A DNA stretch of 64,000 nucleotides from Candidatus Omnitrophota bacterium (GCA_041651115.1 JBAZJY010000003.1:270252-334251); one strand, 5' to 3'; shown: positions 8,652 through 64,000, counted from the first letter of the stretch. Notes: generated by a model from the sequence alone, not told the origin. A program made the numbers and translations.

Positions 8652-8706
8652 CTGTTGTAAGTATTATATTACTTAATTGCCTTTAGTCAAGAAAAAGTTT
8701 TACGAA

Positions 8707-11691: not shown

Positions 11692-11693
11692 GC

Positions 11694-12926: not shown

Positions 12927-12932
12927 GCGGCT

Positions 12933-13876: not shown

Positions 13877-14689
13877 TTAGAAACTAAAAACAAATCTTAC
13901 TATCCTTTCCGCCCAAAATAAAGACATTACCGCGGCCAAAGACAGGAACGGGCCGTAAGGTATTGTGTGATCTTTTTTCACGGCCAAGTTAATAACGCCG
14001 ATCACTGCCCCGAAAAACGGGGCAATAAAAAAAGTCAGCAGCGCCCGCTCCCACCCAAGGAACGCGCCGATCATTGCCAGGAGTTTTACGTCGCCGCCGC
14101 CCATTGATTCGGTCTCCCCTTGTATCGGCGGACGCTTAAGCAGCTTAAAATAAACAACGTCAAAAATAAATCCCGTCAGGTAGATAATACCGCCGCCGAT
14201 TATAATGCCAAGCAGTGAATTTAAGAGCGGCCGGTAGTCAAATTGCAAAGGAGAAATATTAACGCCTCCGGCTGCCCTTAAGATAAGCCCGATAACCATG
14301 CCTCCGATAGAGATCTCATCGGGGATGATCCGGTGCTTTATATCGATAAAGGTGGCGACGATCAAGGCGCATAAAAATATTGCGCAGAAGAAAAAATTAT
14401 AGGAAAAGCCAAAACGGTTATATAAAAACAGGAAAGTCAGCGCAGTCAAAAGCTCTACGACAAAATAACGCGGGGATATCGGCTTATGGCAGGAACGGCA
14501 TTTACCGGTTAAAAACAGATAGCTCAACAGCGGGATATTGTCGTACCAGAAAATCGGTTTCTTGCATTCGGGGCAATGCGAAGACGGCCTGGCCAAAGAA
14601 TATCCCTCAACGGGCATGCGATGTATGCAGACGTTCAGGAAGCTGCCGATCACCGATCCGAAAATAAAGATAAAAACCTTCTCAAACAC
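13877..14689 (-). CDS. pilD: Prepilin peptidase (A24 family; PilD/GspO-like)
   Basis: N-terminal CxxC..CxxC zinc motif (CPECKKPI...CRSCHKPI) and multiple TM helices with catalytic Asp regions. Confidence 0.85.
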   Translation of the reverse strand: MFEKVFIFIFGSVIGSFLNVCIHRMPVEGYSLARPSSHCPECKKPIFWYDNIPLLSYLFLTGKCRSCHKPISPRYFVVELLTALTFLFLYNRFGFSYNFFFCAIFLCALIVATFIDIKHRIIPDEISIGGMVIGLILRAAGGVNISPLQFDYRPLLNSLLGIIIGGGIIYLTGFIFDVVYFKLLKRPPIQGETESMGGGDVKLLAMIGAFLGWERALLTFFIAPFFGAVIGVINLAVKKDHTIPYGPFLSLAAVMSLFWAERIVRFVFSF

Positions 14690-46451: not shown

Positions 46452-48113
46452 TTAGCTATCGTAAGTAGAATAGTAATACGGAGTAAAGGCCTTGAATTCA
46501 GCGGCGCAGGTATCTACCAGCTTAAACGCCGGAGTTATGCTCAGCGATTTGCGCAAAGCGCAGATGTCCTCTTCCTTCTTGTTCAGCAGCGCTGCCAGCT
46601 GCTTGTCGCTGAAACCGTATTGCTTGGCTTCCAGAAGCGAATCCCGCGTAAGATCACCGCTGCCTGATACAATCCGCTTTTCCAGCTCAATGATCTCTTT
46701 TATATTATAGATGAACCAGCGGTCAACGCGGGAAAGTTCATATATTTTTTCCACGCTTACGCCGGCGCGCAGCGCATCGCCGATATAGAATATCCTCTCT
46801 GCGCCGGGGACCCTTACCTTCCGGTATATCCTTTCCAGCGACCCGTTATCTATTTTTGCGCTTTCCATGCCGCTAAACAACACGCTTTCAAGCCCTGCCT
46901 TTTTTATCTCAAGCGAGCGCAGGCCTTTTTGCAGCGCTTCCTTAAAAGTCCTGCCTATAGACATCACCTCGCCTACGGATTTCATGGAAACCGTAAGCGT
47001 GGGATCTGCGGAAGGGAATTTCTCAAACGTAAAACGCGGGATCTTGACTACGCAATAATCAATGGACGGCTCAAAACACGCGGGCGTTTCTTTAGTGATA
47101 TCATTGGGTATCTCATCCAGCGTGTATCCTACGGCAAGCTTTGCGGCAATCTTGGCAATGGGAAAGCCCGTTGCCTTGGAAGCAAGCGCCGAGCTTCTTG
47201 AAACGCGGGGATTCATCTCAATCACGACCTGCCTGCCGGTATCCGGATGCACGGCAAACTGGATATTAGACCCTCCGGTCTCAACGCCGATCTCTCTGAT
47301 ACAGGCGATCGAGGCATCGCGCATGCGCTGGTATTCCCTGTCGGTTAAAGTCTGCGCCGGGGCAACCGTAATGCTGTCTCCGGTATGCACGCCCATAGGA
47401 TCAAGGTTCTCAATAGAACAGATAATCACTACGTTATCTTTTGTGTCGCGCATTACCTCAAGCTCAAATTCTTTCCACCCGGCAACCGACTCCTCGATCA
47501 ATATTTCGCTGATCATACTGGAATCAAGGCCGGCTTTGGCAAGCAGCCGAAACTCTTCTATGTTATAGGCAACGCTGCCTCCGGTGCCGCCCAAAGTAAA
47601 GCTGGGGCGGATAATCACCGGAAAACCGATCCGCTCGGCTACTTTGCAGGCATCTTTTAAAGTATATGCCTTGCCGCTTCTGGGCAGGTCAAGGCCGATC
47701 TTCTGCATCGCATCCTTGAATAATTGCCTGTCTTCGGCTTTCTTGATCGCCTTAATGTTGGCGCCGATAGTTTCTACTTTGTATTTCTTGAGCACTCCCT
47801 TTTCAGCCAGCCCTACCGCGGTATTCAAAGCTGTCTGGCCGCCTAATGTCGGCAGGAGCGCGTCCGGTCTTTCTTTCGCGATAATTTTGGCGACGATATC
47901 CACGGTTATCGGCTCGATATAAGTGCGGTCCGCGGTCTGCGGATCAGTCATGATCGTCGCGGGGTTAGAATTAACCAAGACGACCTCAAACCCTTCCTGT
48001 TTTAGCACCTTGCAGGCCTGCGTGCCGGAATAATCAAATTCGCACGCCTGGCCGATGACGATCGGGCCGGAGCCGATGATCAGGATTTTTTTAATATCTG
48101 TCCGTTTGGGCAT
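46452..48113 (-). CDS. carB: Carbamoyl-phosphate synthase large subunit, N-terminal half only (split carB)
   Basis: 553 aa; begins [30 protein letters not shown]; ends at a genuine stop just after the DTCAAEF linker that normally begins the second ATP-grasp half; the next gene is unrelated (DedA). Confidence 0.85.
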
Positions 48114-48128
48114 ATTTTAAAGAGACTC

Positions 48129-48500
48129 CTAACAGGCGAAATTCTCTATTATCGAGCTGATTTGCTGGATATCAAAAGGCTTATTTATGGAATGCGCTGC
48201 GCCCTCTTGCCGGGCCTTCTGAAGCAGGTCATCAACCGCATAACCGGTCATCATTACATATTTTGCCGCCGGGTCAATCTTCTTGAGTTCCCTGAACGTT
48301 TCCAGGCCGTTCATCTGCGGCATCTTTACGTCCAGGAAAACCAGGTCAAACCTTTCCTGCCTTGCCGCTTCGATAGCCATGAATCCGTCTTCTACGATCT
48401 TTACGATTGCAGATTTTAACGCCAGAAAACGGGCAAGAAAATCCCTGACTACCTGCTCGTCATCTACTACCAAGACTTTTATTTTTCTATCGTTTTCCAT
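48129..48500 (-). CDS. Stand-alone response-regulator receiver (CheY-like), paralogous to REC1 of the tandem-REC proteins
   Basis: VLVVDDE...FLDVKMPQMNGLETFRELKKI...YVMMTGYAV...KPFD; start taken at MENDRK. Confidence 0.8.
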   Translation of the reverse strand: MENDRKIKVLVVDDEQVVRDFLARFLALKSAIVKIVEDGFMAIEAARQERFDLVFLDVKMPQMNGLETFRELKKIDPAAKYVMMTGYAVDDLLQKARQEGAAHSINKPFDIQQISSIIENFAC

Positions 48501-49602
48501 AGCGTTTCCCTCCAATTTTCTTTTTTGGCGGCCGCAGCAAACCGATGAACCGGTCAAAAAGATAATTTGCGTCATGCGGCCCCGGACCGGCTTCAGGATG
48601 GAATTGGACTGAAAATATCGGCCACCGTCTGTGCCGGATGCCTTCAAGGGTATGATCGTTCAAATTTATATGGGTTACTTCAATATCACGCTTACTCAAA
48701 GAACTCTCGTCCACGCAAAAGCCATGGTTCTGCACCGTAATATATACCCTTCCGGTCTTAAGGTCTTTGACCGGATGGTTCCCGCCATGATGGCCGAATT
48801 TTAGTTTATAAGTCTTACCGCCCATGGCCAGGCCCAGCATCTGCTGGCCCAAACAAATGCCGAAAATGGGAAGCTTGCCTAAAAGTTCTTTTACGGTATT
48901 GATAACGTACGATACCGCGGCCGGGTCTCCCGGCCCGTTGGAAAGCAAGAGGCCGTCGGGCTTGACCGCTAATATTTGCGCGGCACTGGAATCCGCCGGC
49001 ATCACGATCACCCGACAATTACGCTCTTCTAATGCGCGTAAAGTATTTAATTTTATCCCGCAGTCAAGCACTGCTACTTTATATTTACCCTGCTTATTCC
49101 ATTCATACGGCTTAGCGCAGGCAACACCTTTAACCAGGTCTACGCCTTCAAGACCCGGTGAAGACCTTGCCTTGACAATCAGGCTCTCATGATTAAGGTC
49201 TACGGTGGATAAGACCGCTTTCATTGCCCCTGCCTGCCGGATATGCAGGGTAAGCGCGCGCGTATCGATACCTTCTATACCGACGATATCGTTTGCCGCA
49301 AGATATTCGCCGAGTGACTGCTCCGCGCGCCAGTTGCTGGCGATCTTACTGTATTCTTTTACCACAAATCCTTCAACAAACGGCCTGCATGATTCAACGT
49401 CTTCTTTGTTTACGCCGTAGTTTCCGATCAAAGGATAGGTCATTGCCACGATCTGGCCTTTATAAGAAGGATCGGTAATGATCTCCTGATATCCGGACAT
49501 ACTGGTATTAAAAACGACTTCGCCGCACTTTTCTCCGGCAGCGCCGAAAGAACGGCCTCTGAATATTGTCCCGTCTTCTAAAACAAGCCTGGCTTCCGTC
49601 AT
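48487..49602 (-). CDS. carA: Carbamoyl-phosphate synthase small subunit (glutamine amidotransferase)
   Basis: 371 aa; class I GATase with Cys-His-Glu triad region. Confidence 0.95.
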   Translation of the reverse strand: MTEARLVLEDGTIFRGRSFGAAGEKCGEVVFNTSMSGYQEIITDPSYKGQIVAMTYPLIGNYGVNKEDVESCRPFVEGFVVKEYSKIASNWRAEQSLGEYLAANDIVGIEGIDTRALTLHIRQAGAMKAVLSTVDLNHESLIVKARSSPGLEGVDLVKGVACAKPYEWNKQGKYKVAVLDCGIKLNTLRALEERNCRVIVMPADSSAAQILAVKPDGLLLSNGPGDPAAVSYVINTVKELLGKLPIFGICLGQQMLGLAMGGKTYKLKFGHHGGNHPVKDLKTGRVYITVQNHGFCVDESSLSKRDIEVTHINLNDHTLEGIRHRRWPIFSVQFHPEAGPGPHDANYLFDRFIGLLRPPKKKIGGKRYGKR

Positions 49603-49606
49603 GTGA

Positions 49607-51130
49607 TTAGGTTACAAATAAATTACGGGAAGAGAACTTCCCGTCTGTCGTCAAATTAACGCCCAGCCTTTTTAACCCTACGTCGTCGCCGGGAGAAGGG
49701 ATATGCGTCATATGTATTTCGCAATTCCTTAGTTCTGTAAGTTTTTTCATCGCCAGCTCTGCCGTATGATTGGTCGTGGCGCTTATGGAAAGCGCGATCA
49801 GCGTTTCTTCCAGGTCCAGGCTTTCCGATTCTTCGTTTAAGATCCCCTGTTTCAGCATCGATATCTGGTTGATGATCTGCGGAGAAAGCAGGAGGATTTC
49901 GTCGGGGATACCGGCAAGCACCTTTAATGTATTGATGATCAGGCTTGAGGCGGCATGCATCAGTTTGGAATTCTTTCCGGTTACCACTTTCCCTCCGGAA
50001 AGCTCAAGCGCTGCGCCGCAGAATATGCCGGCGTTACCTTTACCTTTTGATTCCGCTTCTTCGGCAGCCTTTCTTGCTATTTCTACGACTTTCCTGTCCG
50101 TAAGCTTAACGCCTAATTCTTCCATTAAAAGCGCCACCCTCTCCGCGGCCTCTTTCTTTTCTATTCCTAAAACATATTCCGCATTATAGCGGAAATACCT
50201 GCGTATCAGCTCCTGCCGCGCCGCTTCCTGCACTGCGTCGTCGTCAATTATGCCGAAACCTGCGCGGTTAACACCCATATCCGTGGGAGAATTATACATC
50301 GGCAGATTACTTTTCTTCTCCAATATCTTATTTAAGATCAGTTTCAATATCGGGAAGCTTTCCACGTCCCGGTTATAATTTATCGCCGTTTCGTGGTAGA
50401 TATTCAAATGAAAAGGGTCAACGAGGTTAAAATCCTGTATGTCTGCGGTCGCCGCTTCATAAGCGACGTTTACGGGATGCTTAAGCGGAAGGTTCCAAAT
50501 GGGAAAAGTCTCAAACTTCGCGTATCCGGCATTCACGCCTTTTTTATGCTCGTGGTATAATTGCGAAAGGCAGGTAGAAAGTTTTCCGCTATTCGGCCCG
50601 GGACCGGTAACAACCATAACCTGGTTCTTTGTCTCTATATAGTCGTTCCTGCCAAACCCCTGTTCGCTGACAACCAGGTCTACGTTAACAGGATAGTTCT
50701 CTATCGGATAATGCAGATAAACCTTAACCCCGCGGCGCTCCAGCTTATTTTTGAATACGGCTGCCGAATGCTGCCCGGAAAACCTCGTGATCACTACGGC
50801 CAGAATATCCAGGCCCCATTTGCGCAGGTCGTCGATCAGCTTTAAAGTCGCGGCATCGTAAGTTATGCCAAAATCCCCTCTTACCCTGCCCCGTTCAATA
50901 TCGCCGGCATAAATGCAAAGGACAATGTCAATCTTGTCTTTTAATGATTGCAACAGCCTGATCTTTACGTTCGGGTCATATCCCGGCAGGACGCGCGCAG
51001 CATGGTAATCAAAACAAAGCTTACCGCCAAACTCAAGGCAAAGCTTACTATTAAACTTTTTAACCCTGTCTAATATCGCCGCAGTCTGTTCTTTGAGGTA
51101 TTTTTCGTTGTCAAAACCGGTCTTTTCCAT
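49607..51130 (-). CDS. Conserved hypothetical protein (UPF0371/DUF1846-like)
   Basis: 507 aa; N-terminus MEKTGFDNEKYLKEQ...LEFGGKL..DYHAARVLPGYDP resembles the UPF0371 family as I recall it; no catalytic motif recognised. Confidence 0.4.
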   Translation of the reverse strand: MEKTGFDNEKYLKEQTAAILDRVKKFNSKLCLEFGGKLCFDYHAARVLPGYDPNVKIRLLQSLKDKIDIVLCIYAGDIERGRVRGDFGITYDAATLKLIDDLRKWGLDILAVVITRFSGQHSAAVFKNKLERRGVKVYLHYPIENYPVNVDLVVSEQGFGRNDYIETKNQVMVVTGPGPNSGKLSTCLSQLYHEHKKGVNAGYAKFETFPIWNLPLKHPVNVAYEAATADIQDFNLVDPFHLNIYHETAINYNRDVESFPILKLILNKILEKKSNLPMYNSPTDMGVNRAGFGIIDDDAVQEAARQELIRRYFRYNAEYVLGIEKKEAAERVALLMEELGVKLTDRKVVEIARKAAEEAESKGKGNAGIFCGAALELSGGKVVTGKNSKLMHAASSLIINTLKVLAGIPDEILLLSPQIINQISMLKQGILNEESESLDLEETLIALSISATTNHTAELAMKKLTELRNCEIHMTHIPSPGDDVGLKRLGVNLTTDGKFSSRNLFVT

Positions 51131-52956: not shown

Positions 52957-53436
52957 TTAGTTCTTCGGCTGGCGCGCCGATATGCTTAATGCCGAGAACT
53001 TACGCAGTTCAACGTCAATAAGGCCGTCGAGAGCGACAAAAGAATCCTTTAATTTTTTGACCTGCTCTTTTATTTTCTTTTCTGCCGGTTTGAACGCATC
53101 AAGATTGCTTATGCCGAGCTTATTGCTGTTTTTCACTGTGCCCAGCCACGCGGTGATAAATTTGATCGCGCTTTCGCCGCTGTCTTTCTTAGTCAAAGTT
53201 TCAAAAATGCCCAGCATGGAAAAATAAGCGTCTAACTGTGTTGCCGTAAGTATGCAGGAATCGAACATAGCGGTCAAAACAACGCTATCTTTTGTTTTGG
53301 GGGTCATCAAGCCCCTTATTTCCTGCGCCTGCCCAAGGACCTGATCGCGCAAGTCTACGATTTTAGAATCCAAGGCATAGGCGTTAAAAACACAAAACAG
53401 GGTTAACAGCAGAAAAAATACAACAGCTCTTTTCAT
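52957..53436 (-). CDS. Hypothetical secreted protein (signal peptide), last gene of the pseudopilus cluster
   Basis: MKRAVVFFLLLTLFCVFNAYA signal; no recognisable domain. Confidence 0.5.
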   Translation of the reverse strand: MKRAVVFFLLLTLFCVFNAYALDSKIVDLRDQVLGQAQEIRGLMTPKTKDSVVLTAMFDSCILTATQLDAYFSMLGIFETLTKKDSGESAIKFITAWLGTVKNSNKLGISNLDAFKPAEKKIKEQVKKLKDSFVALDGLIDVELRKFSALSISARQPKN

Positions 53437-53455
53437 AGCATCCTCCTTTGCCCGG

Positions 53456-54022
53456 TTAGGCCATTACGATCATCGCGATAGTTATCGAGCACTGCACAGT
53501 GCCGGTCTCCTTGGATTTCGGGCTGATCTGGTACTTTTCAATATTAAAGAGCGAATTCAGGTTCTCAATATTATACATGAACTCAATGACCTGCTCCATC
53601 TGCCCTTCGCAGCTTAAAACCACCTGGAATTTCTTGGTCCCGTCTTTCTCGGCTTTCACGCCTGCCGGCTTCATATCAACGATATAAAGCGAACTCTTAC
53701 CGGCTTGGTTCTCGACCTCCTTGAGGAAAGACGTTGTCGCCTCTTCTTCCGATTCGGGAGAACTGAAAAAAGAGGCGTATTTCTTTGACTCCAGGATGAT
53801 CTTCTCTTTCTGGGCGAGCATGCGCATATCCCTGACAATGCCGGTTTCCCCCTCCTTTATCGCGTTGTTCAACGAATTAATCCTGGAATAAACCGGATAG
53901 ATGATCAGCCTGTCAAGCGCTACAAGGGACAATGCTGTGGCCGCGGCGTAAAAAATGATCTTTTCCCTTTTAGACAAGCCGGAAAGGACTTTAAGCAAAG
54001 GCTGCAGCTGAAGCTTAAACAT
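53456..54022 (-). CDS. GspM/PilO-like bitopic assembly protein
   Basis: Single N-terminal TM + coiled coil + periplasmic domain, 188 aa, positioned after the GspL-like gene. Confidence 0.55.
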   Translation of the reverse strand: MFKLQLQPLLKVLSGLSKREKIIFYAAATALSLVALDRLIIYPVYSRINSLNNAIKEGETGIVRDMRMLAQKEKIILESKKYASFFSSPESEEEATTSFLKEVENQAGKSSLYIVDMKPAGVKAEKDGTKKFQVVLSCEGQMEQVIEFMYNIENLNSLFNIEKYQISPKSKETGTVQCSITIAMIVMA

Positions 54023-55494
54023 TATATCTTCCTGCCTTCCTGAAAACCGGTAATTTCAAAGTCTGTAACGTCTTTAGTACCTTCTCTCCTCTTGGTGGTA
54101 TATTTAGTTTTTACTTCCTTAAAATACTTTGACTTTTCCAGCTCTTCAACAAAAGTAAATACCGCCGACATTGATTCCGAGGCGCCCCGGAGAGAAACCT
54201 TGCCCTGGTCATCGAATTTCACGTCGCTTAGTTGCAGCTCGTCGCTGACAAGATTATATAACTCTACCAGCACCTCCAGAGAATATCCCCGCGCCGCTAA
54301 ATAAGCTTTTATCCTGCTGATGCGGTCAAAATCGCTTTCCAGTTTTTTTGCCTCTTCGTTCAAGATCTGATACCTGTCGGTCACCCTCTTTAAATATAAT
54401 CCTTTAAAATAAATGCCCGTGACCATTATAAAAAAGATAAGGATAAAATTCATCAGGATAAAGATCCCTGTTTTAATCAGCTCTTTACCTCTTTCTTCAA
54501 GCGTCTTCCTCAGCTTTATCTCTTCGGGCACAAGGTCAACTTTAAGCTTATCCCATGAAAAAAGCGCGGCAATGATATGCATAAAGGACATCTGCTTGGC
54601 CAGCGAAGCGGCGCGTCCGGCCTCAGCCGCAATCGGGATGCTTTTTATGTAGGGCAGGACCTTAACCGGCAGGTGCATGCTGTTATTTAACGTATCCTCC
54701 AGTTCCCTTACCGGCTCTATCGCTCCGGTAAGAATAAGCATATTAGGTATCTTTTCTATGTCTTCGTTCTGATAGGCCTCAAGCGAATGCAACAATTCTT
54801 CGACGAATTTCACCTCGTATTTTTGCTTTTCCGCCAGGATATGCTGGGTCCCGATAGGGATGCTCCGGACGAAGATCGGCTTATTTTTATAGGCGATGAC
54901 AAAATCGGAATGGTTTTCATCAAGGTGCACGATATTCACGGGCGGATCGCCATTTTCAATCTTTAGCATCTTACCGGTAAATACGGCCAGCCCCTCGGCA
55001 GCCAGAAGCACCCTTTCAAGCCGAAGGCCTGCTTTATCAAGTATTTCAAGGTGCTTCTTTACCAGGCTGCGCGCTATAATTACCAGGAGTATTTTGGTAT
55101 AGCTGTTCTTATACGTGCCTATCTCAATGTAATCGGCAATGATCTCGTCGCGCGAATAAGGCGTATGCCTGCCTGCCTGGAGGTTGATGATCTCTTTTAT
55201 TTCCCGGGGGTCTACCGAAGGGACTTCGATGTTTTTTGTGATCACCGAATGCGAAGGGATTACGCTGATTACGCCGGGATTTTTGACTTTGAATTCCGTG
55301 GCGCTGCCCCTGACGACATTGGCAATGTCCTCGGCGATCAAGCCGCTGATATTGCGGGTGGCTATGCCGGCGATCTCAACTTTATTCAGAGAAATCACCG
55401 CATGGACGAACTTAAGATTATCGCCGGTAAAATCTATGCCGATCATTTCTTTGTTAACCATATCGGCGAATTTTTTTACGTTGATCCCAACCAT
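54022..55494 (-). CDS. GspL-like (PilM-PilN fusion type) assembly protein: cytoplasmic actin-like domain + TM + periplasmic domain
   Basis: 490 aa; PilM-like N-terminal region, central TM helix (IFILMNFILIFFIMVTGIYF), PilN-like C-terminus. Confidence 0.6.
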   Translation of the reverse strand: MVGINVKKFADMVNKEMIGIDFTGDNLKFVHAVISLNKVEIAGIATRNISGLIAEDIANVVRGSATEFKVKNPGVISVIPSHSVITKNIEVPSVDPREIKEIINLQAGRHTPYSRDEIIADYIEIGTYKNSYTKILLVIIARSLVKKHLEILDKAGLRLERVLLAAEGLAVFTGKMLKIENGDPPVNIVHLDENHSDFVIAYKNKPIFVRSIPIGTQHILAEKQKYEVKFVEELLHSLEAYQNEDIEKIPNMLILTGAIEPVRELEDTLNNSMHLPVKVLPYIKSIPIAAEAGRAASLAKQMSFMHIIAALFSWDKLKVDLVPEEIKLRKTLEERGKELIKTGIFILMNFILIFFIMVTGIYFKGLYLKRVTDRYQILNEEAKKLESDFDRISRIKAYLAARGYSLEVLVELYNLVSDELQLSDVKFDDQGKVSLRGASESMSAVFTFVEELEKSKYFKEVKTKYTTKRREGTKDVTDFEITGFQEGRKI

Positions 55495-56579
55495 CAGGGC
55501 TCCCGCCAGTATAAGATTTTCCCGTTACGGTCCAAAATGCAATAGATATCGCTTACGTTGGCGCTGTTGTTCAATTTTACCCGGCAGCGGACGAAGAAAT
55601 TTTCCGACCTGACACCAAGATATTTACCGGATATGTCGGTTAATTGTGCTAACTCACTGGAGCTTAAATGCGCGAACTCGCTGAGCTTCGGCACGATCTC
55701 TGAGGCCTGCACAAAAATGTTGTCGTCTTCGGTCCCGGTTACCCTGTCTTCTCCCGCGCGGAAAAGGATGATATTTTTTACGATATTTTCATCCAATCCC
55801 AATGCCGTCAACACGAGCTTGGAAGCAGTATTGATATTGACCCTGCCGCTGCCGTAGATTGTAACATAGTTTCTTACTTTACTGAATATATTTTCATCCA
55901 TGCCTTTAACCAATAATAATTCTTCCGGGATGTCAAACTTGGCGTTCTTTGCTTCATAAGGATACGGCAGGCCCTTGTAATAATTACTCTCCGCGCCTCC
56001 GGAAAATACCCCCGACTCAGCGTCGGAGTCGCGCCAGTCAATAATACAGGCTGCCAATTCCTGCGCCCGCGCTTCATCATATCCAAGTAAGCCCATAAAC
56101 AACTGCCGCAAAATCTTCAATACCGCTTCCTTATTTTCACTGGATATGGTATTTACGTTGATCTTGCTCTCTTCGTCAACGAGCCCGTAACGCAAGCCCT
56201 GATCGCCCGACTCTTCGTCAACGTAATCATAACAGATATTGGCAGTCCCCGCGCCTACGCCTATATTCATGAATACGGCCGGGTTGCTGCTCCAGGCGCC
56301 GTTTAATGCGGCATACTGCGGGCCTTCCATCTGCCATTTTTTTAATTCAGAAATTGTTTTTTTTACCCCTGCCTCGGCAATAAAACGCAGGCTCGCCCGT
56401 TCATCCAGCCGCTTTGCCATCACTGCCTTCTGCCTCACCTGATAACCCAATATTACCGCAAACGCGGAAAGCAGGCAAAGAGACCACAGGACGATCACTA
56501 AAATACTCCCTGCGCAATTAACCCGCGATGGGGATAAATACTGACTGTATAAATTTACGTGTCTGATCGCCATCTCCAA
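55494..56579 (-). CDS. GspK-like minor pseudopilin
   Basis: N-terminal hydrophobic segment (GSILVIVLWSLCLLSAF), large periplasmic domain with helix-hairpin-helix-like VNINTASKLVLTALGLDENI. Confidence 0.6.
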   Translation of the reverse strand: MEMAIRHVNLYSQYLSPSRVNCAGSILVIVLWSLCLLSAFAVILGYQVRQKAVMAKRLDERASLRFIAEAGVKKTISELKKWQMEGPQYAALNGAWSSNPAVFMNIGVGAGTANICYDYVDEESGDQGLRYGLVDEESKINVNTISSENKEAVLKILRQLFMGLLGYDEARAQELAACIIDWRDSDAESGVFSGGAESNYYKGLPYPYEAKNAKFDIPEELLLVKGMDENIFSKVRNYVTIYGSGRVNINTASKLVLTALGLDENIVKNIILFRAGEDRVTGTEDDNIFVQASEIVPKLSEFAHLSSSELAQLTDISGKYLGVRSENFFVRCRVKLNNSANVSDIYCILDRNGKILYWREP

Positions 56580-57108
56580 TTTCCAATTCTACCTTGACTG
56601 CCGGAGGCATCCCGGATTTCTGCCATGTATCCTGCCAAAAGTATATGCCGTCATCCTCTTTAAAAACATAATATTGGAATTTTAACGATTTTATATTAGT
56701 TAAAGACTGGGTAAGGCTTCCCTGGCTGCTGCCGCTATATACCTGGGAATAATCATCCTGCTGCCGGGTTAAAAGCTCGGCCTGCGGGTCATAAGAATAG
56801 GTAACCTGCCCCACGGTGGTATTCTGAAGGCGGGTGCTTTTTACAAGCGTAGGCAGGGATAATTCTTCTTCTCTTCCGGAAAAGTTTATTGAAGCCGAGT
56901 TTACGCCGTTACGCAGGTCGCGGGAAAATTTATCAAGGAAGATCACGGCATCTTCCTGAGGCAGCTGCCTGGTTATCTTCTGCCATATCCTGAGGCCGTT
57001 ATTCAATACCCCGTACATTGCCATTGAAACCATTGCCAGGAGGGTAACAACCAGCAGTAACTCTATCAAGGTAAGGCCAGTTTTTGTTTTCCGGTCTGGA
57101 TGCATCAT
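56518..57108 (-). CDS. GspJ-like minor pseudopilin (prepilin-type N-terminal cleavage/methylation domain)
   Basis: KTGLTLIELLLVVTLLAMV class III signal. Confidence 0.6.
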   Translation of the reverse strand: MMHPDRKTKTGLTLIELLLVVTLLAMVSMAMYGVLNNGLRIWQKITRQLPQEDAVIFLDKFSRDLRNGVNSASINFSGREEELSLPTLVKSTRLQNTTVGQVTYSYDPQAELLTRQQDDYSQVYSGSSQGSLTQSLTNIKSLKFQYYVFKEDDGIYFWQDTWQKSGMPPAVKVELEIGDGDQTRKFIQSVFIPIAG

Positions 57109-57569
57109 TTTTCCCGCAATATCTCATATGTGCTTCTTGAAAGCGCCAAATTTCTTTTGCCGGTCTTCCATGAAAGGGAAAGGTCCAGGGCGTACAGCCG
57201 CGCCTGCTCATCGAGCGGGCCGCAAGCTAAACTCCACCGGAAAATTTTATTGTTTTCCGTAAACTCTCCGCCTTCCTGGCCGGCCAAAGGGACCCCCTGC
57301 CTGAGTTTATCCTGTGCCTGCCAGATCCTATTATCCGCCCAGGAAGCAACGTTCAAGTAGTCGGTATAATAATTAAAGGTATCCAAAGAAATAAAGAAAG
57401 CTTCGTATACCAATACCGTGCCCAGCGCCAGGGCCGCAGAGGCAGCCATTACTTCCAAAAAAGTGAATCCTGCAACGGCCCGCTTAATCCCAGTTTTTAA
57501 CATCATCTGAACTCTCAACGCCGTCTTTACCCAGCGAATAAAGGTCGTAATCGGCCGGCCGGTGCTCAC
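57105..57569 (-). CDS. GspI-like minor pseudopilin
   Basis: AGFTFLEVMAASAALALG prepilin-type N-terminus; 154 aa. Confidence 0.55.
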   Translation of the reverse strand: MSTGRPITTFIRWVKTALRVQMMLKTGIKRAVAGFTFLEVMAASAALALGTVLVYEAFFISLDTFNYYTDYLNVASWADNRIWQAQDKLRQGVPLAGQEGGEFTENNKIFRWSLACGPLDEQARLYALDLSLSWKTGKRNLALSRSTYEILREK

Positions 57570-57897
57570 CGGGGCATTTATATTTATATTCCCTGCCCCA
57601 GGGATCTATGGGCTTTTTTTCAATATACGGCCCGTGCCAGTTTGTTGCTGATCCGGGTTTATCAAGTAGGGCGTTCAACCCTTCATCCGAACTGGGGAAA
57701 CTGCCGTTATCCAGCTCATATAATTTTAAGGCAGTGGCAATATTGGCGCGGATATCCGCTTCCGCGGCGGTAGAACGCGCCTGCTCAGTTCGGCCGGTAA
57801 GCCGGGGCATGACCATAGCTACGAGGGCGCCGATAATAATCACGACCAGCATCAGCTCAATAAGCGTAAATGCCCTTACAGCGTGTTTTTTATCCAT
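57484..57897 (-). CDS. gspG: Type II secretion major pseudopilin GspG
   Basis: AFTLIELMLVV...YELDNGSFPSSDEGLNALLDKP...WHGPYIEKKPIDPWGREYKY; start at MDKKHA. Confidence 0.8.
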   Translation of the reverse strand: MDKKHAVRAFTLIELMLVVIIIGALVAMVMPRLTGRTEQARSTAAEADIRANIATALKLYELDNGSFPSSDEGLNALLDKPGSATNWHGPYIEKKPIDPWGREYKYKCPGEHRPADYDLYSLGKDGVESSDDVKNWD

Positions 57898-58753
57898 TGT
57901 TTTTCTCCTCCAGGTATTTTCTCCATTCATTATCCAGCTCTGCGATGCTGCGGATATGCATCGGATAAACAAATCTAAGCGCCTCCTCGAGGGATTTACC
58001 GTCGCGCAGCTGCCGGCAGAGCTCAATGAATTTCTCCGAACCGAAACGCACAATCAAAAAGTCCACCAGCGATACCGCTTGCAGATAAAACGCATTCACC
58101 AGTTTCTCGCCGCTTAAAAACAATACCCCTTTCCTGTTATCGTTTGTAGTTACGGTATTGATATAGATGCTTTCGTCTGCCCTTATTTTCCTGACATCCA
58201 GAACCATCATCTCTTCCAGCGGCAATACCAGATTATCTTTATAGGCCTGGCTTGCCATGGCTTTTATGTAATTCCTGTCCGGCTTTTCCGCCCATTGCGC
58301 AATGCCTTCATCCAGCCAGAGGGGCACTTCGCCTTTAAAACCCACGAAGTCCCGGAAGATCAAATGCGCCATCTCATGCGGCAGGAGGGATTCCACAAAA
58401 CCCTTGCTCCAGGCATAACTGATTATTTTTTTACCACGGTAATCAGCCATACCCTGCGACCAATAGGGCTGGTGCGTGGCGGAAATAAAAGACTTATGGT
58501 CGGGATAGATATAGATCTTTACGCGGTTGTCCCACGTCCAAAATTCCGAATAGCGCGCGTATCCGAGGTCTCCGGCGATCCTCTTGTAATAATATTCGCT
58601 TTTATCCAGTACGTTCTTCGCAAATCCCGGGTCATTCGTGAAATAGACGATAAAGTGTTCGCTTTTAAGCTGTTCCCAATCCTGGCCGCAGGCATTCTGT
58701 TGCGGCAGCAAAAAACACAAAGATGTTAACGCGCAGAGTATTGCTCCCCTCAT
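57890..58753 (-). CDS. Secreted HExxH protein (putative zinc metallopeptidase), possible cargo of the secretion system
   Basis: Signal peptide MRGAILCALTSLCFLLPQQNACG; LLPHEMAHLIF motif; 287 aa. Confidence 0.5.
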   Translation of the reverse strand: MRGAILCALTSLCFLLPQQNACGQDWEQLKSEHFIVYFTNDPGFAKNVLDKSEYYYKRIAGDLGYARYSEFWTWDNRVKIYIYPDHKSFISATHQPYWSQGMADYRGKKIISYAWSKGFVESLLPHEMAHLIFRDFVGFKGEVPLWLDEGIAQWAEKPDRNYIKAMASQAYKDNLVLPLEEMMVLDVRKIRADESIYINTVTTNDNRKGVLFLSGEKLVNAFYLQAVSLVDFLIVRFGSEKFIELCRQLRDGKSLEEALRFVYPMHIRSIAELDNEWRKYLEEKNNG

Positions 58754-59505
58754 AATCCTTTCAGTTGCTTAATCTTATTTATTTCCTCATATATTTTATC
58801 TATCTCAAAAGGTTTATACAGGCACCCCTTGATATTAAGCTTCAGCTGCTTGATATCTTCACAACGCTCGACATACCCGGTGATCAGAATAATCGCCAAG
58901 TCCGGCTTTGCCTCTTGTATCTTTAAATAAAGCTCCGCTCCCTGCATATCCGGAAGCACCGTATCCACAAACGCCAGGTCAAAATCCTTTTCTTTCAGGC
59001 TTTCCAGCGCTTCTTTGCCGGTTTTAGCCGTAACCACGTCGTAGATGTCTTCTTTAAGCAGCTTTTTGAAAAAATTTAAGACTACTTCTTCGTCATCGAC
59101 AATAAGCATCTTCAAAACACCCCGAGGCGTCTTATTTTTTATGCAACCGTCAATAAGTTTTTTTATTTGCATCACGTCAAAGGGCTTTTTAAGCGCGTGG
59201 GCTACGCCTTCCTTCTTGGCCTGCTCAAGGATCTCATTCACCGCATAGCCCGTCATCATCACGTACGTAGTATCCGGGCTTATTTTTTTGAGCTCCCTGA
59301 ATGTTTCCAGGCCGTCAATACCGGGCATTCTGACATCAAGGAATACGAGGTCGTAGCTGGATTTCTTTGCCATCTCAATCGCCTTGAACCCGTTCTCCGC
59401 GGCTTCAGCGTTCAAGCCGTTTACGGTCAAAAGCTGGGTCAAGAAATTCCTCACCACTTCCTCGTCGTCAACAATCAACACATTAATATTTTTTTTAGCA
59501 TCCAT
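58750..59505 (-). CDS. Tandem-receiver (REC-REC) response regulator without output domain
   Basis: Two complete receiver domains, each with DD, phospho-acceptor D, T and K residues (VLIVDDEE...FLDVRMPGIDGLETF...MMTGYAV...KKPFD; MLIVDDEE...FVDTVLPDM...ILITGYV...YKPFE). Confidence 0.85.
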   Translation of the reverse strand: MDAKKNINVLIVDDEEVVRNFLTQLLTVNGLNAEAAENGFKAIEMAKKSSYDLVFLDVRMPGIDGLETFRELKKISPDTTYVMMTGYAVNEILEQAKKEGVAHALKKPFDVMQIKKLIDGCIKNKTPRGVLKMLIVDDEEVVLNFFKKLLKEDIYDVVTAKTGKEALESLKEKDFDLAFVDTVLPDMQGAELYLKIQEAKPDLAIILITGYVERCEDIKQLKLNIKGCLYKPFEIDKIYEEINKIKQLKGL

Positions 59506-59548
59506 TTATCCGTATCTCCTCTCTTACAGAAATCTACTACAGCACCTT

Positions 59549-61081
59549 CTAATCCGATTCGTAACTTACGCGCAGCACTTCCTTTAAAGTAGTTATCCCG
59601 TTGATAACCTTTTCGCAGCCATCCTGATATAAGGTTCTCATGCCGTTTGCCTGCGCCGCCTGCTTAATTTCGGCAGCCGGGCATTTTTTAGTGACCATCT
59701 CTTTTATCGGATCATCAATAACCAGCAATTCAAAGATACCAATGCGCCCCTTATACCCGGTATGCCGGCAAAAAAGACAGCCCTTGGAACGAAAAAGGCC
59801 AGCCTTTGCATCTTTATCCATGCCCAAACTTTGACGGATTTCTTCATTAGGAGAATACTCTTCTTTGCATTTCGGGCAAATGACCCTTACCAGCCTCTGC
59901 GCCAGAATGCCGATAACGCTGGCAGAGATCAAGAACGGCTCAATGCCCATATCAACCAGCCTGGTGATCGCGCCGGAAGCGTCATTGGTGTGCAGGGTGG
60001 AAAAAACCAAATGCCCAGTAAGCGCTGCGCGAATAGCGATCTGCGCAGTCTCCAGATCCCTGATTTCGCCGACCATGATAATGTCCGGGTCCTGGCGCAG
60101 TATTGCCTTTAAGCCGCTGGCAAAAGTAAAGTTTATTTCGGGGTCTACCTCACCCTGATTTATCCCCTGCAAAAGCTGCTCCCGCGGGTCCTCAAGGGTT
60201 ATAATATTCTTCTCCTGCGAATTTAATTTTGTCAACGTTGAATACAAGGTGGAAGTCTTTCCGCTGCCGGTCGGCCCGGTAACCAGAATTATCCCGAACG
60301 GCTTACGAATCAACGATTCAAAAACCTGTAAATTCTGCGCGGAAAACCCTAATTTATCAAGGCTTAAAAACGCGGAAACGCGGTCTAATATCCTGATCAC
60401 CACTTTCTCGCCGAAAGCGATCGGAAAGGTAGAGATACGCAGATCCACTTCCCGGTCTTCTATGCGCACGCGAAAACGCCCGTCTTGAGGCAGGCGGTGG
60501 TCTGTGATGTCTAATCCGGCAACGACCTTGATCCGCGGCACAACGGGCAAATTCATTCCCCGCGGAAAAGCGGCAAGCACGTGCATGATGCCGTCTATCC
60601 TTAGGCGGACTTTTACCTGCTCTTCTTCCGGCTCGATATGTATGTCGCTGGCATTATCTTTTATCGCCTGCGCGATGATCAAGTTAACCAGCTTTATTAC
60701 CGGCGGCTCTTCAACTATCCTCTGTATCCTTACCAGATCAAGTTTATCTTCCTGCACAAACGTAACCCCGCCTGCCTGCAGGCCCTTAATGATATCGTCG
60801 ATGGAGTTGCTCACGGTATAATATTGCTCAATTGCCTTGACAATCTCAACCGGGTCTGCCTTTACTGCCTGGATCTTGCATCCGGAAACCGCCGCTGCCT
60901 CATCTAATGCGATAAAATCAGCCGGATTACTCATCGCAACGGTCAAAGTATCCCGGACCTGAAAAATAGGAATGATCTTATGCCTCCTGGCTACTCTTTC
61001 GGGAATAGTATTTAATATAGCGGGATCGATTATATAATTATTCAGGTCAACCGAAGGGACGTCTTTACCGGGTTTAAGCAT
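59549..61081 (-). CDS. gspE: GspE/PilB-family secretion ATPase
   Basis: T2SE N-terminal domain, Walker A GPTGSGKTSTL, tetracysteine CPKC...CLFC, 510 aa. Confidence 0.9.
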   Translation of the reverse strand: MLKPGKDVPSVDLNNYIIDPAILNTIPERVARRHKIIPIFQVRDTLTVAMSNPADFIALDEAAAVSGCKIQAVKADPVEIVKAIEQYYTVSNSIDDIIKGLQAGGVTFVQEDKLDLVRIQRIVEEPPVIKLVNLIIAQAIKDNASDIHIEPEEEQVKVRLRIDGIMHVLAAFPRGMNLPVVPRIKVVAGLDITDHRLPQDGRFRVRIEDREVDLRISTFPIAFGEKVVIRILDRVSAFLSLDKLGFSAQNLQVFESLIRKPFGIILVTGPTGSGKTSTLYSTLTKLNSQEKNIITLEDPREQLLQGINQGEVDPEINFTFASGLKAILRQDPDIIMVGEIRDLETAQIAIRAALTGHLVFSTLHTNDASGAITRLVDMGIEPFLISASVIGILAQRLVRVICPKCKEEYSPNEEIRQSLGMDKDAKAGLFRSKGCLFCRHTGYKGRIGIFELLVIDDPIKEMVTKKCPAAEIKQAAQANGMRTLYQDGCEKVINGITTLKEVLRVSYESD

Positions 61082-61451
61082 CCTTCCCCTCCAATAGCTC
61101 TTTTATTTTAGCGGTAAGCTCCTTTAGATCAAACGGCTTGGTAATATAGCAGTCCGCGCCTACTTTCTCGCCCCATTCCTTATCTTCTTTTTGGCTTTTT
61201 GCCGTGAGCATGATCACCGGTATATTCTTATACCTTTGATCAAATTTTAAGAGCCGGCAGACCTGATATCCGTCCATGTCCGGAAGCATCAAATCCAAAA
61301 TAATCAGGTCCGGATTTTCCGACTTTGCCTTATTATAAGCGGTATTTCCGTCGGTAGCAACCGTGACTTCATAGCCGGTTGCCTCCAGCCGCATCTTTAT
61401 GGTCGTAACAATATCCGGCTCATCATCTACCAAAAGGATCTTTTTAGCCAT
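61074..61451 (-). CDS. Single-domain CheY-like response regulator
   Basis: KILLVDDEPDIV...LIILDLMLPDMDGY...VIMLTAK...KPFD. Confidence 0.85.
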   Translation of the reverse strand: MAKKILLVDDEPDIVTTIKMRLEATGYEVTVATDGNTAYNKAKSENPDLIILDLMLPDMDGYQVCRLLKFDQRYKNIPVIMLTAKSQKEDKEWGEKVGADCYITKPFDLKELTAKIKELLEGKDA

Positions 61452-63061
61452 TATAACGCAACCTCCTTAATCGGAAGCGTAAAGCTTAATTTGCTCCCCT
61501 TGCCTAATTCGCTCTCTGCCCAGATCTTCCCACCGTGCTTTTCCACGATGCCTTTGGATATACTAAGGCCTAAGCCGGTGCCCTTAACCAGCGCTTTAGC
61601 GCCAGGCCGGCTGACTTGATAAAATTTATCAAAAATCTTTTCCAAGTCAGCCGTGGGTATGCCTGAGCCGGTGTCTATGACGTCAGTTTGGATAAAATCT
61701 CCTTCTCTGAATATATTAACGTTGATTGAACCGCCGGAAAGCGTAAATTTCAAAGCATTGCCTACAAGATTAGTGATCACCTGCGTGATCCTGTCGGCAT
61801 CCGCCTGAATGCGCGGCAGGCCGGCTGTAAAAGAAGAGGATAATTTGATCCCTTTTTCTTCTGCGATCTTTTGCAAGAAACCGATGGCATCGCTTGCCAG
61901 CGCAGCGATATCCAATTGCTGCTTATTTAACTGTATCCTGCCTGCTTCAATACGCGAAATATCCAAGAGTTCAGAGATCAAACGGTTTAGGCGGTCAATA
62001 TTGCGCTCGATAAGCAGGAGGCATTCATTCTGGCTTTGGTTCAGGCTGCCGGTAATCCCTTCCAACAGGTTCTCGGCCGCGCCTTTCATCGCCGCTAAAG
62101 GCGTGCGCAACTCATGGGAAACCAAAGAAACAAAATCATTTTTCATCCGCTCAATCTCCCGCTCTTTGGTCACGTTCCTCAAAACCATTACCACGCCCAG
62201 CGGCTTCTCCGTTTCATCCTGTATGCAATTTGTTTCAACGTGGATGATCCGGGCAGACGGCTTCTCCATATATATTTCCTTGATCGGCGGAAAACATACC
62301 TTCTTTTTTACGGCGTCGGGCGGATTGCTTAATCCCGATTCATGGAAAAATTTTAACAGCGCTGCGGCATCCAATTCCTGATGGTAGTAACCCAATATAT
62401 CCCGGGCCGCGGCATTAAAAATAACCACCTGATTTTTTTCATCAAACATGATTACCCCTTCCGACATCCGCTCTACCATTATCTTCATCTTGCTTTTCTC
62501 GGCTGCCAGTACGGACTGCAATCTTTCAATCGCAGACGAAGCCTGAGAGGCAATAGTATAAAATAATTTTATGTCGTCGTCGGAATAAAAAACATTTTTA
62601 ACGCTGCTTACGCTTAATATACCTACTGCCTTGTCCCTTAGGAACAGCGGGACGTCAAAAGACGAGATTATCGACTGAAGCGGAGAACCCGCTTCTGCCA
62701 ACTCCCCCTTAAAATCCATGGCCAGTTCTTCTTCGGCGACTGCCTCCCCCCTTAAGTTATTTAAAGCAGACAACACCTTGCGTTTTGCCGAATCAATAAC
62801 CTCCGTTTTTAATGGATGTGCTATGCGGACCGCCATTTTTGCCTTTTTTTCTTCTTCAGAAACGATCAACGATATACAAAGGTCGTAATCTATGATCTTA
62901 TACAGGGAATCCATGATAAAACGCAGAATATCGTCATAATTAAGCGTATAGCTGATGCTGTTGCTTATATCATAAAGCACGGATAATTCAAAAAGCCGCT
63001 GTTTTAGCTCTTGCGAAAGGCACTGATTCTCTTCCTTTAATTTTTCCGTCTCAACCGTCAT
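61451..63061 (-). CDS. Sensor histidine kinase with GAF and PAS-like sensory domains (cytoplasmic)
   Basis: HisKA H-box [19 protein letters not shown]; HATPase_c G-boxes ([18 protein letters not shown]); no TM helix evident. Confidence 0.85.
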
Positions 63062-63802
63062 CTATTTCTTTGATTTCGCCGTTTCAATATACTTAAGGAT
63101 ATTATTTATTTCAAAAGGTTTATACAGGCATCCGGAAACCGCCAGTGTACCTTCAATTGACTTCGCCTTCTGGGGAAATCCGGTGATCAAGACGATATTT
63201 GCCTCCGGCAGAATGGCTTTAAGCTCATTATACGCATCCACTCCGTTGGCATCCTTAAGCACAAGATCAAGGAAAATAAGGTTAAATTTATTTTGCTTTG
63301 CCAGCATAACGGCTTCCTCTTTACTATGCGCACTTTTACAGGAGAGATTTTTTTGCGCCAGCAAAGAAGAAAAAAATTCCAGGATTGTTTCATCATCGTC
63401 AATAACAAGGATGTTCAACTGCTCCCCGGATTTCACGGCACTGACCTTATCCAGGACCTCTTTTATCTGACTGATGTCAAAAGGTTTGCGTATGTCGCCG
63501 TACGCGCCTTCTTTACGGGCCTGTTCAAGCGTGTCCTCTACGGCATATCCGGTGATCATTACTGCCTGCGCATCAGGATCAATCTGACGGATCTGGCGGT
63601 AAGTCTCAAGGCCGTTAAGCCCGGGCATGCGCACGTCAATAAAATAAAGGTCGAATTTACCTGCCTTCACCGCTTCCACCGCCTTATATCCGTCTTCAAC
63701 GTCAATTACTTCCAGCCCCAGTAAAGACAAAAGACGTTTAAAAAAATCCCTGACGATTTTTTCATCATCCACTACCAGAACCTTAAGCTTAGCTTCACCC
63801 AT
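63062..63802 (-). CDS. Tandem-receiver (REC-REC) response regulator, paralog of 58750..59505
   Basis: [14 protein letters not shown]...[21 protein letters not shown]...VMITGYAV...RKPFD then ILVIDDDET...[11 protein letters not shown]...VLITGF...YKPFE. Confidence 0.85.
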
Positions 63803-64000
63803 TTTCTTCCTCCTTGTGCCCTGCCAAACTTGATAAAGGCAAATTTATCCTGAAAGTAGCCCCTTTACCCTGCTCGCTTTCAACCTTAATATTTCCATGA
63901 TGCTCCTTGATGATACCGTAAGCAATGGAAAGGCCAAGGCCCGTGCCCTCTCCCATGGGTTTAGTAGTAAAAAATGGCTCAAAGATTTTATCCATATCGT
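63795..64000 (-). CDS. Histidine kinase, C-terminal HATPase fragment (gene continues beyond window end)
   Basis: [51 protein letters not shown]2/G3 boxes; ATGA overlap with the downstream REC-REC. Confidence 0.7.

Follow-up and report, generated by a model that had tools for sequence, protein, structure and literature searches.

Two-component genes and a second assembly ATPase in a T2SS-like filament locus of Omnitrophota suggest direct phosphorylation control

Can the assembly of a type IV filament be controlled directly by phosphorylation? This question is raised by a gene cluster at positions 52957-64000 of a 64-kb window (the whole stretch of DNA that was analysed) from a metagenome-assembled genome of Candidatus Omnitrophota. 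Bacteria of this phylum are uncultured, mostly ultra-small and suspected to be predatory or parasitic. The cluster combines genes for a pseudopilus resembling that of type II secretion systems (T2SS) with genes for histidine kinases (HK), proteins made of receiver domains (REC) and a GspE/PilB-class assembly ATPase of 510 amino acids (aa), called E510 here. An earlier reading made from the sequence alone (the sequence-only reading) had proposed, from the position of this ATPase among the signalling genes, that phosphorylation directly controls pseudopilus assembly or extrusion; to our knowledge, no direct phospho-control of T2SS-type systems has been described. In the explanation that we prefer, with a probability of roughly 0.55 for the explanation as a whole, the region comprises the downstream two-thirds of a single long locus of co-directional genes, which encodes a type IV filament machine of the T2SS/pseudopilus type, specific to Omnitrophota. 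Its gene order and conserved residues suggest that phosphorylation controls the machine directly.

A kinase, receiver and ATPase triad

The E510 gene directly follows genes for a GAF-PAS kinase and for a CheY-like single-domain receiver of 125 aa (REC125), and REC125 overlaps the kinase stop by 1 nucleotide (nt) and the ATPase start by 8 nt. The E510 motifs are intact by sequence (Walker A, Asp box, Walker B, His box and CxxC..CxxC). Its true orthologues, in about 24 clusters, are 505-513 aa long with 58-74% identity, and E510 is devoid of the N-terminal ~55 residues that bear MshE-type cyclic di-GMP (c-di-GMP) motifs in its 560-aa paralogues. Eight genomic contexts of E510-type ATPases were compared, with related loci cited by number:

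Window: in the pilus locus; upstream GAF-PAS kinase and REC125; 8-nt overlap
L031: in the pilus locus; upstream GAF kinase and REC; 8-nt overlap
L089: in the pilus locus; upstream GAF-PAS kinase and REC; 4-nt overlap
L086: stand-alone, with housekeeping flanks; upstream GAF kinase and REC; 8-nt overlap
L087: stand-alone; upstream GAF kinase and REC; 3-nt gap
L088: stand-alone; upstream GAF kinase and REC; 8-nt overlap
L091: stand-alone; upstream GAF-PAS kinase and REC; 50-nt gap
L092: stand-alone; upstream a cut, unannotated 328-aa open reading frame (ORF) and REC; 8-nt overlap

A REC125 orthologue lay directly upstream of the ATPase in all eight contexts, five of which were far from pilin genes, and genes with two receiver domains (REC-REC) stood beside the module in six. 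Orthologues of the GAF kinase and REC125 were found in the same order in nine loci. A REC-REC/GAF-kinase/REC cassette was also present in the pilus locus of four relatives without E510 (L030, L035, L036 and the P0090 contig). Because of the eight contexts and the four cassettes lacking E510, the kinase-receiver pair is tied to the ATPase paralogue and also, in its own right, to the pseudopilus locus, and this dual linkage is the strongest support available for a predicted functional coupling. The proposed control of the secretion ATPase is thus favored by the synteny of REC125 with E510 in eight of eight contexts and by the catalytic residues, but the step to direct control is drawn from gene order.

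Genes of the region and of the contig beyond the window

Genes were called by Pfam and NCBIfam profile searches. The region is filled by 14 co-directional ORFs, all on the minus strand, and the profiles agreed with every call in the gene order given by the sequence-only reading, from a kinase fragment to a small secreted protein. They also supported the prepilin peptidase that it had placed outside the region (last line).

63795-64000, minus strand: HATPase_c C-terminus, the last 67 aa of a 728-aa CHASE4-PAS-HisKA-HATPase kinase; Pfam HATPase_c match
63062-63802, minus strand: REC-REC protein of 246 aa (REC-REC246), no output domain; two Response_reg stretches
61451-63061, minus strand: GAF-PAS-HisKA-HATPase kinase, 536 aa, cytoplasmic; Pfam GAF, PAS, HisKA and HATPase_c
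61074-61451, minus strand: REC125, CheY-like single-domain receiver, 125 aa; Response_reg
59549-61081, minus strand: E510, second GspE/PilB-class assembly ATPase, 510 aa, MshEN/T2SSE; T2SSE 452 bits
58750-59505, minus strand: REC-REC protein of 251 aa (REC-REC251), no output domain; two Response_reg stretches
57890-58753, minus strand: predicted exported gluzincin metallopeptidase, 287 aa, HEMAH-x18-E (WLDEG); Peptidase_MA_2
57484-57897, minus strand: GspG major pseudopilin, 137 aa, leader ending RA/FTLIEL; TIGR01710 equivalog, T2SSG and N_methyl
57105-57503, minus strand: GspI-position minor pseudopilin, 132 aa, leader AG/FTFLEV; weak N_methyl only
56518-57108, minus strand: GspJ-like minor pseudopilin, 196 aa, leader TG/LTLIEL; N_methyl and weak T2SSJ
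55494-56579, minus strand: GspK-like minor pseudopilin, 359-361 aa, no Glu5; T2SSK_1st 71.6 bits and HHH_3
54022-55494, minus strand: PilM-PilN fusion (PilMN), 490 aa; PilM_2 and PilN
53456-54022, minus strand: PilO/GspM-like bitopic protein, 188 aa, one transmembrane (TM) helix; PilO 23.3 bits, weak T2SSM_b
52957-53436, minus strand: last gene of the locus, encoding 159 aa with a hydrophobic segment at the N-terminus; no Pfam family
13877-14689, minus strand: prepilin peptidase (A24), unlinked, 40 kb away; A24_N_bact and Peptidase_A24

The junctions down the region are overlaps of 8, 0, 1, 8, 4, 8, about 20, 4, about 56, 1 and 1 nt, and gaps of 43 and 19 nt. The start of REC-REC246 overlaps the stop of the CHASE4 kinase by 8 nt, and two of the short overlaps are ATGA, one of them joining REC-REC251 to the peptidase. 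The gene ends had been described as overlapping by ATGA or 1-8 nt; most junctions are overlaps of 0-8 nt, with two longer ones at the I and K genes. Two-component genes are enriched in the region, with 5 of its 14 genes against 1 of about 46 elsewhere in the window (Fisher p = 0.002); the three receiver proteins contain five receiver domains, instead of the four counted before. A scan for internal promoters and terminators gave nothing convincing, and only a pyrG promoter was seen past the last gene: the best sigma-70-like site (52938-52910) lies after the stop of the 159-aa gene and before pyrG. An Rfam scan of 43 kb spanning the whole locus found no riboswitch, the c-di-GMP riboswitch included.

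Profile searches detected neither GspF nor a secretin (GspD) anywhere in the 64-kb window, the remainder of which is housekeeping. The sequence-only reading had signalling proteins and a putative metallopeptidase in the positions of GspF and GspD, but a replacement of GspF by signalling genes was contradicted when the contig was extended past 64000. An ENA contig (L001/L085) is identical to the window across the shared 10,939 nt and reaches past its end. The upstream genes on it are, in transcription order (L085), a giant ORF, F1-type ATPase genes, MshEN155, the ATPase E715, GspF, REC130, HK278, a binding protein, a HAMP kinase and the CHASE4 kinase. The giant ORF encodes at least 3,298 aa and is cut by the locus end (L085 1-9522 region, with the F1 genes). 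The F1-type genes encode epsilon in a short form (74 aa), a b/delta-like protein that has a TM helix at its N-terminus, and alpha, gamma and beta; genes for Fo were not seen beside them on the extended contig. MshEN155 is a stand-alone MshEN protein of 155 aa before the main ATPase, and E715 is a GspE/PilB ATPase of 715 aa that carries a PilZ domain at its C-terminus. GspF (404 aa; T2SSF; TIGR02120 340 bits, cutoff 424) lies, as does E715, ~6-9 kb past the window end, and REC130 (130 aa) starts 16 nt after it. HK278, a minimal kinase of 278 aa with one TM helix, is followed by an ABC_sub_bind periplasmic binding protein, the HAMP kinase of 507 aa and the CHASE4-PAS kinase of 728 aa, the tail of which is the window's first fragment. 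Both gspF and the rest of the kinase were therefore recovered, and GspF had appeared absent because the window ends inside the signalling island. GspD and GspC were found neither in the 64-kb window nor in the 20 kb upstream, nor in the flanks of 80 related loci.

Class and conservation of the filament machine

The machine had been classed as T2SS-like as opposed to a classic type IVa pilus (T4aP), and the profile scores agree with this. The major subunit passes the GspG equivalog cutoff (TIGR01710, 139.5 bits against 88.85; T2SSG, 110 bits), and the PilA model matches only its N-terminal helix, with 29 bits against a cutoff of 400. The best NCBIfam matches of the E, F, K and M-position proteins are Gsp families, mostly slightly under the equivalog cutoffs. 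E510 and E715 reach 611 and 589 bits against the GspE cutoff of 630 (TIGR02533), so both are sub-equivalog, and their PilB scores are similar; GspK reaches 106 bits against 130 (NF037980), with T2SSK_1st passing in Pfam. GspJ has 26.4 bits for T2SSJ, just below the cutoff, and a weak TIGR01711 match, and the M-position protein has a weak match to GspM_XpsM. Both ATPases are of the assembly class (PilB and GspE structures about 450 bits, PilT about 125-130), with the N1 domain and the Zn motif present. A role of E510 as a PilT-like retraction motor was rejected because of this homology to the PilB/GspE class. No PilT was found in the window or the locus, and no PilP, PilQ, PilA-type pilin or GspH candidate in the locus; the gene order is E-F-G-I-J-K-L-like-M-like.

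In the confident AlphaFold2 model of PilMN (pLDDT 82.8), a complete actin fold of the PilM type is joined by a helix (TM/coiled-coil) to a ferredoxin-like domain at the C-terminus; a TM scan placed one TM helix at 343-361. In Foldseek, the cytoplasmic domain was closest to PilM (5eou, TMt 0.70), ahead of the EpsL cytoplasmic domain (1yf5, TMt 0.65), and no T2SSL match was obtained for the protein. On this model, PilMN has the domain architecture of GspL with a predicted cytoplasmic fold closer to PilM. Because of the PilM-like fold, and because a secretin and GspC were not found, we describe the system as a T2SS-like type IV filament machine and not as a T2SS member.

To place the locus in its phylum, an alignment of PilMN homologues was used, which gave relatives in 224 GTDB species, all of the Omnitrophota type; the closest match among the species representatives was 79%. 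Eighty loci were retrieved and their ORFs annotated with the proteins of this locus. The usual order among them was F1 alpha-gamma-beta, MshEN, E-PilZ, F, MA-family peptidase, G, I, J, K, PilMN, O and the 159-aa protein. The genes for F, the peptidase and G are adjacent in 41 of the 55 informative loci, with the peptidase present in 39 of those 41, and the F1 beta gene is directly upstream in 26-27 of the 27 loci whose sequence reaches far enough. The genes that follow the 159-aa gene downstream are variable housekeeping genes (RpoBC, PNPase/FtsK; pyrG here). No secretin, GspC or GspH was found in the locus of any of the 80 species; large downstream ORFs in relatives were considered as secretins and rejected, as they are RpoB/RpoC, PNPase and FtsK.

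Of all proteins of the locus, GspG is conserved best (median identity 79%; the ATPase has 64% and PilMN 50%), and this conservation fits a buried pseudopilus better than an exposed pilus. The -1 residue of the prepilin cleavage site in GspG is Ala in this genome and usually Gly in its orthologues (L005-L084). The I-position pilin keeps its place and leader in 66 relatives, and the PilO/GspM-like protein keeps its position in 78. The 159-aa protein has orthologues in 48 loci (median identity 35%); its N-terminal segment is a probable signal peptide, and its single-sequence AlphaFold2 model was all-helical with a pLDDT of 46, too poor for a fold search. The MA-family peptidase is present in all loci that carry signalling inserts, with motif residues 90-99% conserved. 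Its active-site stretch aligns with M1 aminopeptidases, and a PDB search matched the HExxH..E stretch only; neither the peptidase nor the I-like pilin has an NCBIfam match. In one relative (L089 13235-13612), a gene of the 23S_rRNA_IVP family (four-helix bundle) lies between the peptidase and gspG. In L041 (JAZDOJ010000055.1), the machine is encoded in two complete tandem copies, and in the second copy the ATPase has 572 aa and no PilZ domain, with a separate set of F, G, J, K, MN and O genes.

Non-respiratory F-type ATPase genes were reported to adjoin 'T4aP' clusters throughout Omnitrophota (Seymour et al. 2023, PMC10066038), and this pilus/F1-ATPase locus is almost certainly the same locus class. 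The regulators and kinases, the PilZ fusion, the peptidase and the second ATPase are not mentioned in that paper. The published name raises the alternative of an ordinary T4aP for attachment or twitching, in which the two-component genes only steer pilin transcription as PilS/PilR do. The PilMN cytoplasmic domain, structurally nearest to PilM, the nearly equal PilB and GspE scores of both ATPases and the PilS/NtrB-like HEINNPL H-box of HK278, the HAMP kinase and the CHASE4 kinase are all in keeping with it. However, the GspG equivalog, the Gsp-type K, F and M and the lack of PilT, PilP, PilQ and a PilA-type pilin in the locus speak for a pseudopilus, the major subunit is conserved in a way that exposed T4P pilins are not, and none of the receiver proteins carries a DNA-binding or AAA+ output domain. 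We consider an ordinary T4aP quite unlikely.

The same gene order is also open to the explanation that the locus encodes a true T2SS whose secretin and GspC are encoded elsewhere, with the MA-family peptidase, and perhaps the giant protein, as main cargo and the signalling island gating secretion; this would be compatible with the regulatory model. It would account for the E-F-G-I-J-K-L-like-M-like order with a GspG equivalog, for the exported HExxH-x18-E peptidase kept inside the operon in ~95% of loci and for the giant ORF directly upstream, and GspD-like secretins have been reported in other Omnitrophota loci (West-Roberts et al.). It is at odds with the lack of secretin, GspC and GspH in the locus across 80 species, with a full PilM-like actin fold unlike that of GspL and with the tight link to F1-type ATPase genes, which has no T2SS counterpart. 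A remote secretin is a real possibility, though one to which we give clearly less than even odds.

The signalling island and a possible mode of control

The signalling island occupies ~11 kb between gspF and the peptidase gene and contains three membrane kinases and the cytoplasmic GAF-PAS kinase, along with two receivers of a single domain, two REC-REC proteins and E510. The receiver residues D12, D13, D57, T/S87 and K109 are kept in all five receiver domains of the region and in two nearby (D12/D13/D57/T87/K109 in both domains of REC-REC246), and REC125 keeps Y106 in addition. The N-terminal REC of REC-REC251 is closest to the Spo0F and NtrC receivers. The GAF-PAS kinase has the H-box SHELRTPL and no TM segment in a TM scan; HK278, the HAMP kinase and the CHASE4 kinase share the H-box AHEINNPL and a near-identical dimerization and histidine phosphotransfer domain (SAKMASIGQLAGGVAHEINNPL). 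The same scan gave the CHASE4 and HAMP kinases two TM helices each, flanking an extracytoplasmic sensor. Loss of the phospho-acceptor residues, which would speak against signalling, was thus seen in neither the receivers nor the kinase H-boxes. Orthologues of the GAF-PAS kinase reached 520-640 bits in eight related loci, those of REC-REC246 were found in L030, L036 and L089, and those of REC-REC251 in L031, L035 and L086-L089.

The sequence-only reading had described these genes as a phosphorelay. No Hpt domain and no hybrid (REC-containing) kinase was found among the 22 locus proteins, and no DNA-binding or AAA+ output domain on any of the six receivers of the locus. A strict phosphorelay was rejected because of the missing Hpt domain: the REC-REC protein's N-terminal domain resembles Spo0F, but no transferase partner was seen. 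Since output domains, Hpt domains and hybrid kinases are all lacking, the signalling set is a branched two-component network that would have to act via protein contacts, and neither a phosphorelay nor a PilS/PilR-type transcription switch.

Inserts of REC and HK genes were found at the junction of F and the peptidase in 14 of the 55 informative loci (25%), with contents varying from three receivers up to a single 1,690-aa kinase, and the insert in this window is the largest. The signalling genes of L067, L068, L074, L081 and L083 are between the PilO-like and 159-aa genes or on the opposite strand just downstream, so the linkage of signalling to the locus arose at more than one position. The remaining 75% of species have no insert at all, and this is one reason to ask whether the island is a hitch-hiking insertion unrelated to the pseudopilus, with E510 and the kinase/receiver pair serving the second pilus system or another process. 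The module stands alone amid housekeeping genes in the five stand-alone contexts listed above, and the ATPase of the second system is the one to which E510 is most similar. Against this, signalling genes recur at the same junction with differing content, or at the alternative positions just named, the island is co-directional and tightly joined on both flanks (ATGA between REC-REC251 and the peptidase; 16 nt from F to REC130), and four relatives have the cassette in the locus but no E510 there. We therefore regard a hitch-hiking island as improbable.

A probable c-di-GMP layer was also recognized in the core machine. The PilZ domain of E715 keeps the RxxxR (R603-VYS-R607) and NxSxxG (NISAGG) motifs, which are conserved in 37 orthologues. 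The phylum consensus of MshEN fits the tandem 24-residue motif RLGxxLIxxGLIxxxxLxxALxxQ, a 5-residue linker and a second copy, as in the tandem MshEN c-di-GMP motif described before (PMC5013675). Because of these PilZ motifs and the MshEN consensus, the core machine is probably c-di-GMP-responsive. Genes for REC-PilZ fusions were found near three stand-alone modules (L086 21183-21536, L088 20031-20765 and L091 6479-7222), a hint of cross-talk between phosphorylation and c-di-GMP.

We propose the following mode of control, starting from what was observed, namely gene content, domains, intact catalytic residues and conserved synteny. Extracytoplasmic signals (through CHASE4, and HAMP with the binding protein) and cytoplasmic signals (through GAF/PAS) would lead to phosphorylation of the output-less receivers, which would act by protein-protein contact. 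The GAF-PAS kinase would phosphorylate REC125, and phosphorylated REC125 would switch E510 on or off or govern its docking on a shared GspF/PilMN platform. The REC-REC proteins would be extra switches or phosphate sinks, and E715 would stay the default or constitutive motor tuned by c-di-GMP. Pseudopilus assembly would in this way respond post-translationally to environmental and cytoplasmic signals. We infer who phosphorylates whom, the contact between receiver and ATPase and the role of the filament (secretion, adhesion or prey contact); candidate functions are secretion of the gluzincin encoded in the locus, display of the giant protein encoded nearby and attachment to partner cells. A bolder version, which we hold to be tentative and rather doubtful, sees one GspF/PilMN platform served by two assembly ATPases, E715 through PilZ and c-di-GMP and E510 through the GAF-PAS kinase and the coupled REC125, with the REC-REC proteins arbitrating. 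This would be phosphorylation-driven motor exchange, possibly for extension versus retraction or for two secretion modes, in a secretin-less, F1-ATPase-linked machine used on partners by ultra-small, probably host-dependent bacteria.

Several points weigh against phosphorylation control of this machine as we describe it. The contact between REC125 and E510 is drawn from gene order, and E510 is closer to the ~560-aa ATPase of the phylum's second pilus-like system (51-57% identity) than to E715 (45%). The module is unlinked to the locus in five genomes, so E510 could serve another machine; in four relatives the locus has the cassette but not E510, which therefore cannot be the receivers' sole target. 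In MshEN155, the R of the first motif is replaced by Q in this genome. The locus has no secretin or GspC, and its output could be secretion or a surface filament.

Compared with the proteobacterial T2SS (Gsp/Eps/Pul), the locus has in common a GspE-class ATPase with a CxxC..CxxC zinc motif, GspF, GspG, putative minor subunits of I/J/K type with a K lacking Glu5, a bitopic L-like protein whose cytoplasmic domain is actin-like, an M-like protein after it, the order E-F-G-I-J-K-L-like-M-like and a separate A24 peptidase. Unlike that system, it has no GspD, GspC or GspH, a full PilM-PilN fusion at the L position and a main ATPase with C-terminal PilZ; a metallopeptidase gene lies between F and G, F1-type genes lie upstream, and a signalling island with a second ATPase is added. 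In the Omnitrophota 'T4aP' loci described previously (PMC10066038), pilus genes likewise stand beside F1-type ATPase genes of the non-respiratory kind throughout the phylum; the present analysis contributes the signalling insert and the T2SS-like character.

A precedent for the proposed control is Synechocystis PilB1, which is bound by CheY-type and PATAN-REC regulators (bioRxiv 10.1101/2021.06.11.447907; PMC11181946). In these cyanobacterial Tax/Pix systems, as proposed here, output-less receivers act post-translationally on the assembly ATPase, and several antagonistic receivers belong to one kinase system. However, those systems are chemotaxis-like (CheA, MCP, CheW) and encoded apart from pilB, whereas here the kinases are of the HisKA type, no CheA, CheW or PATAN is present and translational coupling joins the receiver gene to an ATPase paralogue of its own. 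PilG/PilH (Pil-Chp, Pseudomonas) and the dual-REC protein FrzZ (Myxococcus) are similar in that output-less single or dual RECs steer pili and several receivers share an input; they differ in their CheA-type kinases, polarity modules (FimX/FimL, MglA) and PilB/PilT pair, while the present locus has neither PilT nor a chemosensory core. In c-di-GMP control of MshE/PilB and in PilZ-FimX-PilB, an MshEN-type region and a PilZ module are tied to the assembly ATPase as well. Here, PilZ is fused to the ATPase C-terminus with its motifs kept, a stand-alone MshEN stands before the ATPase and the second ATPase has no motif region. A 2024 review of PilB cofactors states that Xanthomonas/Pseudomonas PilZ does not bind c-di-GMP (PMC11656802), and a term search of the same review returned no passage on a kinase/receiver/ATPase operon or an ATPase-fused PilZ.

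The base locus was known in outline; in the papers searched, we found no description of its T2SS-like character, of the motor fused to PilZ, of the conserved peptidase or, most notably, of the triad of GAF kinase, REC and ATPase. Omnitrophota have few candidates for a host-interaction machine, and the pilus/F1-ATPase locus is among them. A T2SS-like machine without a secretin in cis, probably wired to c-di-GMP and coupled in a quarter of species to output-less two-component proteins, allows sharper hypotheses on partner contact. The triad also addresses how the assembly ATPases of type IV filaments are switched post-translationally, and it is compact enough for in vitro work.

Some further genes were noted around the locus. 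Directly downstream of it, between pyrG and carA, a DUF1846 protein of 507 aa is encoded (49607-51130, minus strand). A lone receiver gene (48129-48647, minus strand) lies between carA (48487-49602) and carB (46452-48113), its probable start being an internal Met; its closest resemblance as a paralogue is to the N-terminal REC in both REC-REC proteins, and its phospho-acceptor residues are all intact. The prepilin peptidase gene is directly followed downstream by genes (7860-13859, minus strand) for a MoxR AAA ATPase, a DUF58 protein, a Big_2 protein of 994 aa and a TPR protein. L091 (12743-19656) also encodes MoxR, DUF58 and two large proteins, two genes past the stand-alone REC/E510-type module, perhaps as a link and perhaps by coincidence.

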